Shown: positions 5,016-61,488 of the stretch, piece by piece
Layout of the letters: each line of letters opens with the position of its first letter
Position numbering within the stretch: the first letter of the stretch is position 1
Source of the DNA: an uncultured bacterium
GTDB lineage: Bacteria > Chloroflexota > UBA5177 > JANWHV01
Direction: 5' to 3'
NCBI GenBank assembly: GCA_963827235.1
Contig: CAWHAE010000016.1
Location: forward strand, 960,001-1,024,000
DNA length: 64,000 bases
Translations under genes and position numbers: made by a program
Notes under the pieces: model-generated
The model's database searches: none
What the model was told of the DNA's origin: nothing
The model's input: only the letters and a program-made list of their open reading frames with translations

Positions 5016-6371
5016 CTAGGACTTAAACCAGCGGCTGGAGGCATCCTCGATCTGCTGCTGCGCGTTGTCCATGGCCATCTTCACAGTCATGCTGCCGATC
5101 AGCGCCGACTGGAAGTTCTGCGTCACGATCTGGCCGAACTCCGAGTCGTGAGCGATGAAAGCTCCGTCCACGTCCGGGAACGGCACGTGCACGATGTCCT
5201 GGTAGCCCGTAGCCCAGGGCTGGTTGGCCAGCCACTGCTTGACACCGGGGACGTTGAGTATCTCCGGGTAGGCCGGTATCACATCCAGGCACAGCTCCAT
5301 CAACTTGGCGTTGTTCGCCGGTGCGTACATGAATTCGGCAAAGGCCACTGCGCCGTCCGTCTTCTTGGTGTCGGCCAGGATCGAGAGAGGGTGCAAGCGC
5401 GAGATCGATTTCCTGGTGGGCCAAGGAGGCGGCGCACTGCGCACATAGTTGTTGAAGTCGGAAGGCGTCATGACCGTCTTGAACTGGTTCACGGCTGCCG
5501 ACACGTTCAGCTCCTCGGCGATTACATTTCTGCCCCAGATGGGCAGCGCCTGGAGGCCGGTGACGTTTTGCAGCATGTAGTTCTTGTACTGGTCGGCCCA
5601 GACCTCGAGTGCGGCGACGATCTTGGGGCTGTTGACCAACGCCTTCTGGCCGACACCCCACACCGTGTCGTACATCAGGCAGTAATTCTGCAGCTGGAAC
5701 CACCAGTTGAAGAAGTCGGATGGCGCGTTTGGCTGCCAGATGCCGTACTGCGTGGGTTTGTGGGTCAACAGCGCGAGCTGATGATTCCAATCCGTGACAT
5801 TCGTGGCAAGCTTGGTGATGCCGGCCTTGTCGGTGAGCTTCTTGTTGTAGGTGATCGCGAACGGCACCTCGACGGTGCTGATGCCGTAGAGATGGCCGTT
5901 GAGGCGCAGGTAGTCGTGTGCCGGCGAAGGGTGAACGCCAAGCTTGGCGACGATGTCGTCGATCGGCCGAAGCACGCCGGCGTGTACCAGACGATAGGCG
6001 CCATCGGGGATCAGGGTGATGACGTCGGCGTTGAGGCCGCCGGACTGCAGCTGGACGAGCATCTGCTGGGTATAAGTGGCGCCGGGCCAGCCGGTCCACT
6101 TGATGACGTAGTCGCTTTGCGAGGCTTCGAAATCCTTGATCAGGGTGTTCCAGGCGGTGTTCCTACCGGGCTCGAACTGGAACCACGACATCAGGGTGAT
6201 AGTCTGCGGCGCGCGGGTCACGATAGCGGGGGCAGCCGCTTTAGCTGTGCTCACCTTGCCCAGCGTGGCAGCAGCGGCTAACCCAGCCGCACCGGCCGCG
6301 CCGGCTTTGAGCACATCCCGCCGCGAGATCTTGGAGGAACCGGCTTCGATACCTTTCGTCTCAGAGGCCAC
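5016..6371 (-). CDS. Sugar ABC transporter solute-binding protein, Tat-exported
   Basis: Twin-arginine signal SRRDVLK plus Ala-rich h-region; family 1 SBP features (LNGHLYGI, ITYNKKL); directly upstream of two permeases. Confidence 0.92.
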   Translation of the reverse strand: MASETKGIEAGSSKISRRDVLKAGAAGAAGLAAAATLGKVSTAKAAAPAIVTRAPQTITLMSWFQFEPGRNTAWNTLIKDFEASQSDYVIKWTGWPGATYTQQMLVQLQSGGLNADVITLIPDGAYRLVHAGVLRPIDDIVAKLGVHPSPAHDYLRLNGHLYGISTVEVPFAITYNKKLTDKAGITKLATNVTDWNHQLALLTHKPTQYGIWQPNAPSDFFNWWFQLQNYCLMYDTVWGVGQKALVNSPKIVAALEVWADQYKNYMLQNVTGLQALPIWGRNVIAEELNVSAAVNQFKTVMTPSDFNNYVRSAPPPWPTRKSISRLHPLSILADTKKTDGAVAFAEFMYAPANNAKLMELCLDVIPAYPEILNVPGVKQWLANQPWATGYQDIVHVPFPDVDGAFIAHDSEFGQIVTQNFQSALIGSMTVKMAMDNAQQQIEDASSRWFKS

Positions 6372-6758
6372 TAGCGTACTCCTTTGAACGAGGACCTGAA
6401 CGTCAATACCAGGGGCTCCGCCTCTACCGTCCTTCGCTGCCTGGGCGCACCACCTCCCATTGACGACTCCGCATGTTCTGGCCTGCTATTGGCCTATAGA
6501 GTGTATATACCAGGCTCTACGCTATTAGCTATTTCATCTGTTGAAACAGCGAGTATATTGTTAACAGTAACTGTAGGCTGCTTGACCAAGAACTGTCAAC
6601 AGTTCGCCGGTCGTTTGCATCGAGCAGATTTCGACCACGCCGGCGCACAGACTGCGCCGGTGCGCGGTCGCCCGCCAACGCTTGTGCAGAGGAGTTCGCA
6701 GGATAGCCGCGCTACGCTTGACGTTCGGCGGAGACTGATCACCAGGGAAGATAGGCGC

Positions 6759-8000
6759 ATGAGGACTATGGCCATCGAATTCCATGGAGAGCTTTCTGAT
6801 ATCTACGCGGCCTACTGCGAAGGGCGACTGGACGATCCGTATCCCCTGTTTACGTGGTTGCTGGAAAGGCACCCTGTCCACTGGAGCGAGCCACTTGAGA
6901 GCTGGTTCGTGGTCAGGCACAGCGATGTGCTCACTGCCCTGCAGGACCCCAGGCTTTCATCGGACCGAGCTGACGTGAATATGCGGAAACTGCCTCCAGA
7001 TATGCAGGTGAGATTGCACGCACTTGGAGAGCACGTCTCCAACTGGCTCGGTTTCATGGATCCGCCGCGCCATACTGAGATTCGCCGCCTGCTGGCTCGA
7101 GTCTTCACGCCAAGATTGGCGCAGAGCCTCGAAGGCCGGGTGATGCTGCTCGCCGAGCAGCTGGCCGGCAAGCTGGCGACCCCTCGGTCCGACCTGGTGG
7201 CAGAGCTGGCACACCCTCTGCCATTGGCAGTGATTTGCGACATCCTGGGTATCCCTCTGCAGGATCGGGCCCTCTTCAGGCAAGCCGTGATCAACATCTC
7301 CGACTACGTGGCCGAGGCCGGTCCCAGCGCCGTGGTAGCCGCGGAGCGAGCGCACGCCGGTGTCATGGAACTGACTGCATACTTCACGGCGCTCGTTGAG
7401 CTGCGCAGGCGCGAGCCAGAGGACGACGTGGTGAGCAAGCTCGCGACCAGCATGCGCGATGCCGTTGGCATGACGCTCGACGAGATCCTTGGAATCTGCG
7501 TCTTCCTCTTCTCTGCCGGCCACGATACCACGACAAGTCTCATCAGCTCCTCGGCACTGCTGCTGCTCCAACATCCGGAAGCACTTGCTCGGCTGCGAGC
7601 CGATCCGACGCTCTTGCCGGCCGCGGTGGAGGAGTTTCTTCGTTTCGAAGCGCCGATTCCCCTGATTTCACGCGTGGCGCACGAGCCCATGGATCTTGGT
7701 GGACAACGGATTCAGGCCGACGATACGGTGGTACTGTGCGTGGCAGCAGCAAACCGGGATCCTGCCGTCTTCCCTGACCCTAACGAGTTGCGCATTGACC
7801 GGACGCCAAACAAGCAGCTTGCATTCGGCTGGGGCGCTCACTTCTGCCTTGGAGCGCCGCTCGCTCGCTTGGAGGCACGCTATGCCCTTACGGCTCTGCT
7901 CGACAGGCTTTCGGCCAGCCGTCTGGAGCATCCCGTTCCGTCCTGGCATAACCGTAACGGCCTTCGAGCGCTCCGTGATCTGTGGACGCTTTGTGCCTGA
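6759..8000 (+). CDS. Cytochrome P450
   Basis: I-helix AGHDTT, EEFLR (ExxR), AANRDPAVF, heme motif FGWGAHFCLG; start placed at MRTMAIEF. Confidence 0.96.
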   Translation: MRTMAIEFHGELSDIYAAYCEGRLDDPYPLFTWLLERHPVHWSEPLESWFVVRHSDVLTALQDPRLSSDRADVNMRKLPPDMQVRLHALGEHVSNWLGFMDPPRHTEIRRLLARVFTPRLAQSLEGRVMLLAEQLAGKLATPRSDLVAELAHPLPLAVICDILGIPLQDRALFRQAVINISDYVAEAGPSAVVAAERAHAGVMELTAYFTALVELRRREPEDDVVSKLATSMRDAVGMTLDEILGICVFLFSAGHDTTTSLISSSALLLLQHPEALARLRADPTLLPAAVEEFLRFEAPIPLISRVAHEPMDLGGQRIQADDTVVLCVAAANRDPAVFPDPNELRIDRTPNKQLAFGWGAHFCLGAPLARLEARYALTALLDRLSASRLEHPVPSWHNRNGLRALRDLWTLCA

Positions 8001-56268: not shown

Positions 56269-59070
56269 TTACTCCGTAGCGTCCGTGGCGGAAGCAGCGA
56301 AACTGCCACGGGCTGACAGGGCGAGGGCGACCACCCCCTCCCGCGACAATGCCTCTCCCTGCTGCCAGGCGGCGGAAAAACCGTCCTCGCCAAGCGCCGC
56401 GACGGTCGCGGCGAGCGTGCGATCGTGGTCATGTCGGTCCGCAGGCGGAAGTGGTGCTCCGACGGTCCGGCGCAGTAACGACGCAGCCGCTAACAGCTGC
56501 GTTGCCCCATTCGGCTGCCCATGCGCGCACAGCACCCCGGCTACACCTTCCAGGCACTCGGCCAAGCAGCGCAGATCGCCTATCGCCAGAGACGCACGCA
56601 GGCCATCCTGGTACAGGACCAGGGCGCGACCTGCCTCACCCAGGGTCCGTGCAAGGTGCGCCAGTCCGTGCTGCGCGACAGCGATGCCGCGTCGATCGCC
56701 CAGAGCGCGACGCAGCGCCAGACACTCCTGATAGTGGTCCTCGGCGCGCCCGTAGTCACCCTGCGCGTACGCGACGGCGCCAAGATTGCCAAGCGAGAAG
56801 GCCATGCTCCATCGGTCCTCCATGTCACGCCGCAGCGCCAGACTCTGCTCCGACAAAGCCGCCGCCCTTTGCAGGTCTCCCACGTCTCGGGCCACGCTGC
56901 CCAGGTTATTGAGGGAGAGGGCGATACCCCATTTGTCGCCGAGATCTCGGCGCAGTGCCAGGCTCTCCTCGTGCCTGGCAACTGCGTGCGCGTAGTTTCC
57001 CTGGTAACGGGCTACCTCGCCCAGATTGTTGAGCACAGAGGCAAGGCCGCGCTTGTCGCCCAACGCTCGCTTCTTCGCCAGGCTCTGCTCATATAGGCTC
57101 GCTGCACTGGAGTAGTCGCTTTGGTCCAGCGCGACGTTCCCCAAATTGGACAGGGCAACAGACTCGCCGGCCTCGTTGCCCAGGCTACGCTGCAGGCCGA
57201 GCGCTTCCTCGTAGAGCGCTCTGGATCGCGCGTAGTGACACTGGTATCTCGCCACGCTGGCCAGCACGTTGAGCGACGCGGCGATGCCGGCTGTGTCGCC
57301 CAGGGAGCGGCGCACGCGTAGACTCTCGTCGACCCTGAGCGCGGCGAGTGCATAGTTGCCCAGCTCGGTCGCCAACACGGCGGCGCCATGCAGCGCCGCG
57401 GCACGCACGGCGGGCAGCACGGCGCTGCCGTCCTGCTCAGCCTGTGCAAGCAGTTCCTCCAGCCAGCGCTGCCCTTCGCTCAGGTATCCGCGCACCTGCC
57501 AGAATCGCCATAATGCCCCCGCCAGCCGCAGGCCCAATTCCTCCCGGCGCTCTGCGGGATCCCCGCCGCTCTGGAGGGCCCACTGCAGTGCCGCGCGCAG
57601 GTTGCCGATCTCTGCCTCCAGCAGGTCCAGCCAGGTCACCTGTACGCTGCCGGTCAACTGTGCTGCTGCCGATTCCGCCAACGCCAGATAGTGCGCGGCG
57701 CGGCGCTGCTGCAGCACCGCTTGCTCGCCGGTCGTCGCCAGGCATTCCAGCCCGTACGCACGAATGGTCCCGATCATGGTGAAGCGTGCGGCGCCGCCGG
57801 AACCCTCTTCCGACTGCAGCAAGCTCTTGTCGACCAGCGAGGAGAGCGTCGCCAGCGCCGCAACAGCCTCGTCGCCGGACGGAGCACAGACGGCCATGAC
57901 AGCATCGAGCTCGCAGCCGGCGACGAACACGGCCAGACGCCGAAATAAGGCCTGCTCGCCACGGTCAAGGAGCCGATAGCTCCAGGCTACGGCATCGCGC
58001 ATCGTCTGCAGGCGCTGTGGGTGGTCGCGCGGCCCGTTTGCCAGCACGTGGAGCGTGGGGTTCTGCCAGGCTCCGGTGCGGCCGCGGGTGCCGGTCAGCT
58101 GTTCCAGTAATGCCTGTGGCGGCAGCAGTTTGATGCGCGCAGCTGCCAACTCGATGGCCAGAGGCAGGCCATCCAGGCACGTGCATATCTCGGCCAGGGC
58201 GCGCGCGTTGCCGGGAGTGATCTCGAAGTCGGCTCTGACGGCTCGTGCCCGATGGAGGAACAAGGCCACAGCTGCATAACGGCCTAACGCTTCGGCAGCA
58301 GGTAGGTGGCGGAGGTCCGGCAGGGCCAACGGTGGCACCGCATACTCCTGCTCCCCATGCAGGTGTAATGCCGCGCGGCTTGTCACGAGCAGGTTCAGTC
58401 GCGGGCACGTGGTCAGCAACTCGGCCAACAGCGGAGCGGCCGACAGCACGTGCTCGAAGTTGTCGAGCACAAGCAGCAGCTGCCTGTGCCGCAGATACTC
58501 CTGGACGGTGGCCAGCGGGGGTTGCTTATCGGTTTCACGCAGCTCGAGCGTCCTGGCGACCGTCGTGACCACCAGCCGAGCTTCGGTCACCGCGGCCAGC
58601 GAGACGAACGCCACCCCATCGCCATACAGCGCCCACGCAGTGGCCGCTGCCTGGAGCGCGAGACGCGTCTTGCCGACGCCACCGGGACCGGTCAGCGTGA
58701 GCAAGCGTACGTCGTCTCGCAGCAACAGTCGTGCCACCGCGGTTTCATCCTGCTCTCGCCCGATCAGCGGCGTCAGCGGTTGCGGTAGCGTGCCAGGAAA
58801 TGCGGCAATGCGAGTTGGAGTGAGTGCAGGCCCGTCGACCTGGCGTGCCGCGGCCTCAAACGCGGCACGAGCTTCGGCAGCTAAGTCCAGCGCCTGCGCG
58901 AGCAAGTGCACGGTGGTGGGTCGCGGCAGGTGCGGCAGTCCACGCTCCATGTCGCTGATCGCCCGTGCACTCAGGCGTGCTCGTTCAGCCAGCGCTTCCT
59001 GCGTGAGGCCGGCAGCGCTTCGGTATCGGCGCAGCAGGTGGCCGAAGCTCCAGGACTGCGGCGTGGCCAT
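56269..59070 (-). CDS. XRE-HTH + STAND (NB-ARC-like) NTPase + TPR regulator
   Basis: [24 protein letters not shown]; Walker A GPGGVGKT; LLVLDNFE; [13 protein letters not shown]; tandem ~40-aa TPRs (A.SLNNLG..A...GDY..A). Confidence 0.93.
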
Positions 59071-59685: not shown

Positions 59686-59758
59686 TCGGCGTGCATCAGG
59701 CTCTGCGCGCAATCTTCTTCCACAGCATGGTGCTCGCAGTGCCAACCAATAGGGGGGA

Positions 59759-60895
59759 ATGATGGACCCAAACAGCCGACCACGAACAAAGGCGCGCATG
59801 CTGCCGGTGGCCCTCGTGCTTATTGCAGCCACCGTGCCGCTGCCCACCGTTCCCATGGCCGGAACGCACTCAGGCATGGTATGGGCAGCCGGAGCCTGCC
59901 CTGGCGACATCAGCAAGGTCAGTGCCAGCAGCCTGTCGGGTGAGAGCGTCCCGGTCGCGTACACCGGCGACTGGAACGTCTACTACGCGCTCGGCAACAT
60001 CGCGTTCAGCCAGCGAACCAAGGCCGGTGGCGGCATGGTCGACGAGTCAATCGGACACGAGGCCCTCAACTTCACGTTCAACGTGGACAAGCACGGCTAT
60101 GTGAGTGGCAAGGGTAAGGCCATCTACCACTTCGACGTCAAGGCCTATTCCATCGCCTTTCCCGACCAGGTCGGCGATCACGCTTACCTCGTGGGCGCCA
60201 GACAGAGCCGCGCTTTCGCGGTACAAGGGAGGGCGTGTCAGGACGGCAAGATCCAGGTCGAATCGACGAACACTGCCGATCTACTGCTTTACGACGGCGC
60301 CAAGCAGACAAGCATCGGCGCCTGGAACGTGTTTCCACCGGATGACGGGCAGATCACGGAATCAGACAAGCACCTCTCTATAGTCGCTAAGACGTATGTC
60401 AAGCAGATCAGGATGCAGATGAGCTGGAAAGCCAGCAAGTGCATCACCTTTGATCTCGGTGAGCACCGCGACGGCGGCGGGAGCACAGCGACGAGCGAGA
60501 CGCAGGCCAATGGTCCCACGGAAGAGATACCGATCACCAGCACGAGCATTATTACCTACACCAACCCCAACGTAGTATTCAAAACCACGCCAGACGATCC
60601 CTACACCCACCAGATGCAAGCGAGCGTGACCGGGCCGCTGTCCACGCTGGCTGCACTGGTGATGCAAGAGTGGCCCAACAAGCTGCACCCGGTCAAGCTG
60701 CGCGTCACCGCGGCCTGGGGACCACCGGGCTCGCACGGGGCACAGTCGTTCCACTACTCCGGGCGCGCGCTTGATCTGACAACCTCCGATCAGGATCAGC
60801 AGAAGTACGGTTGCCTGGCTGGCCTGGCCTACGAAGCAGGCTTCAACTGGGTGTTCTACGAGAACGCCCTGCATGTCCATACTTCCGTGCGCTGA
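59759..60895 (+). CDS. Secreted protein with C-terminal Hedgehog N-terminal-signalling-like (Hh/DD-peptidase, Zn) domain
   Basis: Signal-like N-terminus; C-terminal [67 protein letters not shown] aligns without gaps to SHH 120-186. Confidence 0.92.
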
Positions 60896-60942: not shown

Positions 60943-61488
60943 ATGGACATGCATCGCGCCATAACCCTGGCTCTAGTCTTGCTGTCTGTTCTCGGCTACA
61001 CCCTGCCAGCCGCGGCAGAACCATGGCGCCTCTACGACAACAGCACATTCGGCTACAGTCTCTCCTACCCAACCGACTGGCGGCAGATCAGTCAATCGAG
61101 CGTCGATCTCGAGCTGAAGAGCGCAGATTCCGGCGCGACCTTTATCGCCCACGCCGAAAGCACGACGAGCGTGCCAAAGCTTGCCGATTTACGAGGGGCA
61201 GTGAGCAGTATGCTGTACGCTGCCGGCGTGCCGAAAGCCGACGCCATCCACTACACGACCCAGGTGCTGCATCGCGTGACGTTTGCTGCAGGCAGCGTCG
61301 ACGTGCGGGGCAGCGGGAAAGCCGGCACCGTCGATGGGCTGGTGGCATACCGTGCTCACGCCATGTATTTCTTCGCCGCGTCATTGGTCAGATCGATCAA
61401 CGGCAAACCACTCCCGGCTGCCACTGCCCAGGCACGCGTGCTGCAGCGCATGGAGGCCAGCATCACCGTCGCGGGACCCAACAGGTGA
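60943..61488 (+). CDS. Secreted PsbP/Mog1-like protein
   Basis: RBS AGGAAGGA, signal peptide ending AAA-E, WRLYDNSTFGYSLSYPTDWR, terminal MEASIT helix-strand. Confidence 0.7.
   Translation: MDMHRAITLALVLLSVLGYTLPAAAEPWRLYDNSTFGYSLSYPTDWRQISQSSVDLELKSADSGATFIAHAESTTSVPKLADLRGAVSSMLYAAGVPKADAIHYTTQVLHRVTFAAGSVDVRGSGKAGTVDGLVAYRAHAMYFFAASLVRSINGKPLPAATAQARVLQRMEASITVAGPNR

Follow-up and report, generated by a model that had tools for sequence, protein, structure and literature searches.

The window, a stretch of 64,000 nucleotides (nt) from the assembly GCA_963827235.1 (contig CAWHAE010000016.1) of an uncultured Chloroflexota bacterium, carries at 59759-60895 on the forward strand a gene for a protein of 378 amino acids (aa), P0001, whose C-terminal domain is a true homologue of the hedgehog (Hh) N-domain, with a similarity far beyond chance. 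As judged from aligned columns, P0001 and its close relatives retain the full predicted zinc and catalytic set and have lost the calcium site. P0001 is probably a secreted, calcium-independent zinc peptidase of the LAS type that acts on peptidoglycan peptides and is encoded by an accessory gene. The features of gene and protein are the following.

59752..59757, + strand: Shine-Dalgarno-like GGGGGG run, read from the sequence, directly 5' of the start codons
59759..60895, + strand: whole open reading frame (ORF), 378 aa and TGA; putative secreted two-domain Hh-type peptidase
59759..59899, + strand: signal-peptide-like N-terminus, residues 1-47, from hydropathy, with A-A-G-A-C47 at its end
59879..60448, + strand: beta-barrel module, residues 41-230, strands at about 70-228; no Pfam family
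60440..60892, + strand: LAS zinc-peptidase domain of the Hh/BacHh (bacterial hedgehog) type, residues 228-378, up to the C-terminal residue
60587..60727, + strand: the six Hh calcium-ligand positions, all substituted (T277, P278, T283, A318, G321, P323)
60734..60880, + strand: predicted zinc/catalytic residues H326, H332, D339, E368, H372 and H374 (HHDEHH), by column mapping

The hedgehog-type domain and its metal-binding positions

The reading frame is uninterrupted up to its TGA stop codon, and residues 312-378 read exactly as quoted in the original prediction, a note made from the sequence without database searches that had described a bacterial secreted protein with a hedgehog-like signalling domain. 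The Pfam model HH_signal (PF01085) matches residues 262-376 with 110.9 bits (E 6.7e-32; gathering cut-off 22.1 bits) over profile positions 51-161 of 161, and is the sole significant Pfam family of the protein. Profile positions 1-50 were left unaligned by HMMER; the bacterial relatives P0022, P0106 and P0107 align from residues 227-229 of P0001. A phmmer search against the chain sequences of the PDB gave 25 distinct matches, all of them hedgehog N-domains (Ihh, Shh, Dhh and fly Hh), the best being Ihh 3n1f (E 6.9e-28, residues 268-378). The similarities pointed out upstream of the quoted region (TNPNVVFK and a further stretch of 13 residues) are aligned in the same way by HMMER, against Ihh. 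Over residues 312-378, the median identity to 13 Hint-bearing animal sequences (recognised by their GCF motif) is 59.7%, which equals the 40 of 67 identities that had been counted against human SHH.

The fold agrees with the sequence matches. In the AlphaFold2 model, calculated from a 35-row alignment, residues 230-378 have a predicted local distance difference test score (pLDDT) of 87-97, and a Foldseek search with the P0001 model gave 38 PDB chains at E<=0.001, every listed one being a hedgehog N-domain. The alignments extend over 150-159 columns to chains of 134-174 residues, with target-normalised template modelling (TM) scores of 0.74-0.89 and root mean square deviations of 1.7-2.6 Å. The superposition on HhN structures that had been proposed as a check thus turned out positive, and both the length of these alignments and the starting points of the bacterial relatives are in line with the predicted domain range of 228-378. 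The protein ends with ...HVHTSVR, followed directly by TGA, and no Hint/Hog part is present. Hydropathy, model and stop codon together bear out the predicted architecture of a signal-peptide-like N-terminus, a beta-rich domain and an Hh domain. The view that this is a genuine bacterial HhN homologue also holds, given the HH_signal match and the ordinary bacterial chromosome context of the gene.

To detail the metal-binding positions, twelve positions were mapped onto 73 full-length Hh-domain instances taken from the 150 best representatives. By this column mapping, H326, H332, D339, E368, H372 and H374 of P0001 correspond to H135, H141, D148, E177, H181 and H183 of mouse Shh, so that the zinc motif reads H332-x6-D339 and H372-V-H374, with E368 as the putative catalytic Glu. 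The combination HHDEHH is found in 67 of the 73 instances. Calcium positions 1-5 read EEDED in 57 of them and are mostly acidic in 8 more. In P0001, the positions of mouse Shh E90, E91, D96, E127, D130 and D132 are occupied by T277, P278, T283, A318, G321 and P323. P0001 and P0003-P0006, its close metagenomic relatives from other assemblies, read TPTAGP, EATRGP or -PVAAV at the calcium positions and keep HHDEHH; none of the six calcium ligands is kept in P0001 and at most one in each of P0003-P0006. The other three exceptions at the calcium site are both copies of P0009 and the LDLa-repeat protein P0033.

P0003-P0006 show 53-81% overall identity. Since none of the six zinc/catalytic residues varies among the four aligned members of this window clade, or in P0005, despite that divergence, selection appears to act on catalysis. 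A clade that keeps these six residues and, from the alignment, lacks the calcium ligands characteristic of BacHh and animal Hh is new here. In the P0005 record, residues 1 to ~97 do not align with the family while the remainder does, which looks like a frameshift or an assembly error. P0027, P0033 and P0091 carry an Hh-type domain followed by cysteine-rich repeats resembling LDL-receptor class A and are probably eukaryotic 'Hedglet'-like proteins; P0033 has neither the calcium ligands nor the catalytic Glu (HHDTHH).

Relation to known hedgehog proteins and distribution

The bacterial Hh domain as a kind is already in print; a literature search on BacHh-type proteins returned only two papers (PMC6027127 and PMC8052667) and their preprints. 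Roelink (2018) describes bacHh as a domain of ~145 residues with over 50% identity to ShhN that forms the C-terminus of larger proteins; he found it in some dozen bacteria, Rhizobium and Bradyrhizobium among them, with zinc ligands, calcium ligands and E177 all identical to Shh; its N-terminal parts recur with other zinc peptidases, and the HhN fold is placed in the LAS arrangement (PMC6027127). Jägers and Roelink (2021) treat BacHh as an M15A subgroup that also binds two calcium ions, through E90, E91, D96, E127, D130 and D132, and name H135 and H181 as stacking histidines; they regard BacHhs as predicted M15A peptidoglycan peptidases, find the Mesorhizobium and Bradyrhizobium genes amid genes for lysozyme, amidase and M23 proteins, report for many BacHhs a C-terminus that coincides exactly with the animal exon-2 boundary, and tested the calcium-regulation idea with engineered Shh mutants (PMC8052667). 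The earlier proposal of another lineage with a different architecture is partly supported; a C-terminal Hh domain in larger proteins is not novel, having been described in 2018 and 2021 (PMC6027127, PMC8052667).

P0001 resembles BacHh in that its HH_signal domain lies at the C-terminus of a predicted secreted protein, its zinc/catalytic residues are identical, its end (SVR, stop) aligns with the animal HhN exon end, its distribution is patchy and accessory, and its N-terminal part is common to other peptidase-like proteins, an echo of the recurring N-terminal parts described by Roelink (PMC6027127). It differs in the calcium ligands, none of six against all as in Shh according to the published descriptions, a comparison that covers the texts of these papers. 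It further differs in a four-residue insert (PNKLHP) before VKLRV, in the host phylum, and in its beta-barrel module, where rhizobial BacHh have three N-terminal transmembrane helices (PMC6027127). With the animal ShhN, IhhN and DhhN (PDB 1vhh, 3n1f, 2wfx), P0001 shares the fold over ~150 residues and the zinc-site residues; unlike them, it lacks the Hint/Hog autoprocessing part, the lipidated N-terminal peptide that binds Ptch1 and the calcium site, and its Hh domain is C-terminal, whereas that of the animal proteins is N-terminal. The H-x6-D and H-x-H zinc motif and the catalytic Glu are those of LAS peptidases (MEROPS M15).

The spread of bacterial Hh domains was surveyed in one genome per prokaryotic species with two motifs from a bacterial Hh-domain alignment; as these motifs include calcium-site residues, the scan is blind to calcium-free forms. 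It yielded 112 stretches, of which 106 were confirmed as bacterial Hh domains and 80 kept, from at least nine phyla:

Myxococcota: 43 of 80 loci, 33 of them Polyangiaceae
Pseudomonadota: 14 of 80
No phylum assigned: 7 of 80, 5 of them labelled Deltaproteobacteria
Bacteroidota: 5 of 80
Acidobacteriota: 3 of 80
Bacillota (Paenibacillaceae): 3 of 80
Planctomycetota: 2 of 80
Gemmatimonadota, Sumerlaeota, Actinomycetota: 1 of 80 each

The notion that bacterial Hh proteins come mainly from rhizobia does not survive this count, and 106 stretches, with at least nine phyla among the 80 kept, correct the impression of rhizobial oddities. Most of the 80 ORFs are short (58 below 300 aa), and in 74 the match ends no more than 13 residues from the stop codon. 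All 80 match HH_signal; 41 also match Peptidase_M15_3, as P0001 does not, and 4 VanY. Additional domains tied to the cell wall are Amidase_2 (2 ORFs) and YkuD_2, Glucosaminidase, PG_binding_1, PG_binding_3, DUF2272 and CHAP (1 each), and a single YLATT match is the only extra domain that is not wall-tied. The best-scoring Hh-domain relative of P0001 outside the clade, P0008 (1127 aa, 47% identity), has two tandem HH_signal domains followed by Amidase_2, Glucosaminidase, PG_binding_1 and DUF2272/CHAP, an architecture repeated in a metagenome-assembled genome of the Polyangiaceae (locus L009, 4860-8240). By its domain content, this type is a predicted multi-enzyme wall hydrolase built around hedgehog-type domains.

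Within the phylum of the host, HH_signal is found in 1 of 401 genomes, namely the host assembly itself, in 0 of 322 good-quality genomes and in 0 of the 4 genus mates; in the host, a whole-genome scan shows the gene as a single copy (112.6 bits). Two single-contig genomes of 1.4-1.5 Mb in this phylum contain 27-28 reductive-dehalogenase matches, a mark of Dehalococcoides-like organisms, in line with Chloroflexota as the phylum. The Hh gene is an accessory gene, patchy in its phylum, and it is new as the sole HH_signal match among these 401 genomes. Among the library entries, many of 105-250 aa (e.g. within P0039-P0155) match only residues ~293-378, with 55-60% identity, and turn unrelated after S/AG, as if single exons of animal hedgehog genes had been called as whole genes.

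The suggestion that P0001 bears on the origin or transfer of hedgehog proved weak. Over residues 262-378, its median identity is 46.0% to 13 animal sequences (range 43-50%) and 45.5% to 79 named BacHh domains, while animal Hh and BacHh have a median identity of 56.6% to each other in this region. Because P0001 is equally distant (~46%) from animal Hh and canonical BacHh, it says little on the origin of hedgehog. The trees, from which P0002 (identical to P0001), the degenerate second copy of P0009 and fragments not covering query positions 48-147 were left out, disagree on the placement; one of them was calculated also without P0005 and the representatives lacking GCF, except for the window clade and the three LDLa proteins. 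In the quick trees the window clade has support values of 99 and 98, stems of 1.17 and 0.83 changes per column and an unusual residue composition. The free quick trees pair it with P0033 (95 and 98), a grouping that we judged unreliable. A constrained tree that holds the clade together with the 79 named bacterial rows is better, with a log-likelihood 18.97 above that of the free tree and a p value of 0.744 in the approximately unbiased test (p-AU). The trees are unrooted, since no M15_3 (PF08291) outgroup was found in the host assembly and 40 relatives.

That the calcium-free lineage split off before BacHh and animal Hh parted, with the barrel independently defining a modular secreted-enzyme family, seems to us a doubtful combination. 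If the early split were true, the two-calcium regulatory site would be a later addition common to BacHh and animal Hh only, and the window clade would show the appearance of the ancestral Hh-type enzyme. Bacterial Hh domains have been cited in support of two ideas: a zinc-peptidase origin of animal Hedgehog, with an activity that may persist today, and its entry into animals by gene transfer. The window clade offers a natural 'Ca-free' control for the calcium-regulation idea and a further data point for rooting the family, of interest to research on hedgehog origin and on LAS peptidases; the basic published picture is unchanged.

N-terminal module, predicted function and rival explanations

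Residues 1-47 look like a signal peptide: basic residues (R7, R9, K11, R13) precede a hydrophobic core that spans about residues 13-30, the 11-residue Kyte-Doolittle mean peaks at 2.15-2.53 for residues 13-29, and pLDDT stays below 50 for residues 1-46. The same basic and hydrophobic layout is repeated in P0003, P0004, P0006 and P0010. Cleavage, and possibly a lipid anchor at C47, may follow from it. P0001, P0003, P0004, P0007 and P0010 all have a Cys behind A-A-G-[AST] (59891-59899 in the window), which could either belong to a loose lipobox or form a disulfide; C160 and C228 are invariant in the four-member alignment.

Between this segment and the Hh domain, the module forms, when modelled alone, an all-beta closed barrel at residues ~65-228 (pLDDT 81.6, predicted TM score 0.75). 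Its only Pfam hint is a sub-threshold match to DUF7222 (E 0.3, residues 100-130), and the ESM Atlas gave no usable match. VtrC/ToxS and lipocalins were considered on account of the best Foldseek matches, which reach just ~6e-3, and the best Z score by VIA, 8.0, equals background, with the C-terminal barrel of arabinanase, OmpA/OprF-type proteins, designed barrels, avidins, TbpB/LbpB and YceI among the candidates. Any specific fold or ligand assignment was dropped after these results.

The module occurs once in the host genome, and once or as a tandem pair at the start of 11 other metagenome proteins of 370-975 aa (P0012, P0013, P0014, P0147 and P0156-P0162), none with a covering Pfam family. 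At least four kinds of C-terminal part, unrelated to the Hh domain, stand behind it in these proteins. P0013 and P0014 (~930-975 aa) have a C-terminal part with an HExxH motif seen by eye, that of P0159 shows a weak Peptidase_M74 match (E 0.005, below cut-off), and another type ends with ...THFHFRISD; also by eye, H-x6-D/H-x-H is seen in P0157, P0159 and P0162, and Cys/His motifs in P0160 and P0161. Searches of PDB sequences gave nothing for P0160 and P0013 and only chance antibody matches for P0159, and hhalign of the alignment of the alternative C-terminal parts against the BacHh alignment gave a probability of 1.4%. The barrel module with its swapped C-terminal parts is an undescribed protein family, and an Hh domain behind a signal peptide and a ~190-residue beta-barrel module that is also found elsewhere is new here.

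From these data, a mechanism can be proposed for P0001. A Sec-type signal peptide would export the protein. In the active site, H332, D339 and H374 would bind the zinc ion, E368 would activate a water molecule, and the transition state would be stabilised by the stacked pair H326/H372. The peptide part of peptidoglycan is the most likely substrate, at D-Ala-D-Ala or at a cross-link. Guesses at the role of the module are substrate or cell-surface targeting, or a pro-domain. Lacking the two-calcium site known from Hh and BacHh, the enzyme should not depend on calcium for its control. A role in wall chemistry is consistent with the wall-enzyme domains fused to bacterial Hh domains in P0008, in L009 and in the 80 ORFs, and with the share of Myxococcota (43 of 80 named loci, 33 of them Polyangiaceae). 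This group is predatory. A niche role, such as lysing or scavenging the walls of other cells, would fit better than core wall growth, because the gene is absent from the relatives searched.

Several results weigh against this assignment. The Peptidase_M15-type models PF08291, PF02557, PF13539, PF01427 and PF05951 do not match P0001 at E<=10, nor does MepA/M74, whereas canonical BacHh often match PF08291 or PF02557; the comparison of HH_signal with M15 scores proposed in the original prediction is thereby decided for HH_signal. Likewise, NCBIfam gave no family for P0001, searches of phage lysin families and PHROGs gave nothing below E 0.18 for P0001 and two neighbours, no peptidoglycan-binding domain was recognised in P0001 by Pfam, and none of the window neighbours adjoining the gene is wall-related. 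For the N-domain, Foldseek with the module found nothing at E<=0.001, and the signal peptide call comes from hydropathy only. The activity of BacHh itself is called 'predicted' in the passages on it (PMC8052667).

A different use of the same parts would be an interbacterial weapon of the polymorphic-toxin kind, with the barrel as a delivery or targeting module and an immunity gene nearby. The recurrence of the module before at least four kinds of unrelated C-terminal parts, including the HExxH type and the weak M74 match, would suit this, as would two neighbours: in the related metagenome locus L002, an Imm5_like gene lies just upstream of the Hh homologue, and in the window a secreted-looking 181-aa protein is encoded 47 nt downstream, with its own Shine-Dalgarno-like site and no terminator-like site in between. 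Yet window and L002 have no neighbour in common beyond the Hh gene, the 181-aa protein has paralogues, and relatives in genus mates without the Hh gene, and is hence not specific to it, Pfam recognises no secretion-system or toxin-marker domain in P0001, and the other C-terminal parts have neither a meaningful PDB match nor a profile resemblance to BacHh. We regard a weapon as unlikely, and take the Imm5_like neighbour in L002 as a lead for an effector/immunity pair, not more. The zinc peptidase might also cleave something other than peptidoglycan, for instance a secreted protein or peptide, a glycoprotein or a free dipeptide of the D-Ala-D-Ala type. An intact catalytic set together with the missing M15 match and wall-binding domain could indicate this, a change in specificity would fit the long stem of the clade and its odd residue make-up, and Roelink argues that Shh may cleave a target that is not peptidoglycan (PMC6027127). 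However, the recognisable domains fused to bacterial Hh domains are all wall-related except for the one YLATT, and the LAS group is described as acting on peptidoglycan peptides (PMC6027127, PMC8052667), which makes another substrate improbable.

A binding module without catalytic activity, or a hedgehog-like intercellular signal, is a very unlikely reading of the domain. Animal Hh N-domains are ligands whose peptidase activity is disputed (PMC6027127), and the Pfam family is called a 'signalling domain'; but this term, adopted in the original prediction, reflects the Pfam name only, and what is conserved is the feature set of a zinc peptidase, with all six zinc/catalytic residues invariant in the clade. 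The stop codon directly after the domain leaves no room for a Hint/Hog part, the first 50 profile positions are unmatched, the Ptch1-binding N-terminal part is described as not conserved in BacHh (PMC8052667), and homologues of Patched and Smoothened are, in Roelink's account, not clear in bacteria with BacHh (PMC6027127). Least credible, in our view, is that the gene is foreign to this bacterium through a binning or assembly artefact or eukaryotic contamination. The host assembly (7.98 Mb in 21 contigs, estimated as 95.9% complete) has an estimated contamination of 9.06% and is larger than its genus mates (4.4-5.4 Mb), the gene is unique among the 401 phylum genomes, and two public DNA runs contain just 0.08 and 0.05 of the words of the stretch and few 151-nt contigs. 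Against this, the gene lies inside a 1.22 Mb contig with typical bacterial genes on both sides, its GC content of 0.61 (0.78 at third codon positions) is near that of the neighbouring genes (0.62-0.69), it has a bacterial Shine-Dalgarno site and no intron, and four close homologues come from other assemblies. In addition, a neighbouring NB-ARC/TPR regulator has paralogues elsewhere in the assembly and in its genus mates, and a 151-nt contig from another sequencing run spans the junction of spacer and gene start (59688-59838) with zero differences.

Gene start, neighbouring genes and the related locus

Inspection of the sequence shows that AGGGGGG abuts a pair of ATG codons at 59759 and 59762. 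Because this Shine-Dalgarno-like run precedes the ATG pair, a start at 59759 or 59762 is preferred over Met14, at which the identical database cluster representative P0002 begins. Upstream of the Hh gene lie genes for a sugar ABC transporter, SDR, ROK, UxuA and LacI proteins, an HTH/NB-ARC/TPR regulator and a TY-Chap3 protein, and downstream those for the 181-aa protein, an aldo-keto reductase and a TetR regulator. The closest are:

56269-59070, - strand: HTH_31 / NB-ARC (STAND ATPase) / TPR regulator, 933 aa
59302-59685, + strand: TY-Chap3 protein (chaperone-like family of type III secretion systems/YbjN), 127 aa, E 1.5e-6, just upstream of the Hh gene
60943-61488, + strand: secreted-looking protein of 181 aa, 47 nt downstream of the Hh gene and with a Shine-Dalgarno-like GGAAGG of its own

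A terminator-like hairpin at 59689-59710 separates the TY-Chap3 gene from the Hh gene. The gene for the 181-aa protein, which has no Pfam or PHROG family, may be co-transcribed with the Hh gene. It is not tied to it, given its three paralogues in the host assembly (46%, 36% and 26% identity) and weak relatives in all four genus mates, which have no Hh gene. The NB-ARC/TPR regulator belongs to a strongly expanded family, with paralogue matches at the DNA level on at least eight other contigs of the host assembly and in all four genus mates. Around the Hh gene there is no synteny with these four genomes, only paralogue matches.

Scans of genome and metagenome contigs with a single protein as the query found no related locus. 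With an alignment as the query, one related metagenome locus was found, L002, with 65% identity:

5526-6479, + strand: Imm5_like gene (putative immunity family, E 1.8e-37), directly upstream of the Hh homologue and on the same strand
6835-7947, same strand: Hh homologue

No counterpart of the Imm5_like gene was found in the window; the Hh gene alone matches between the two loci.

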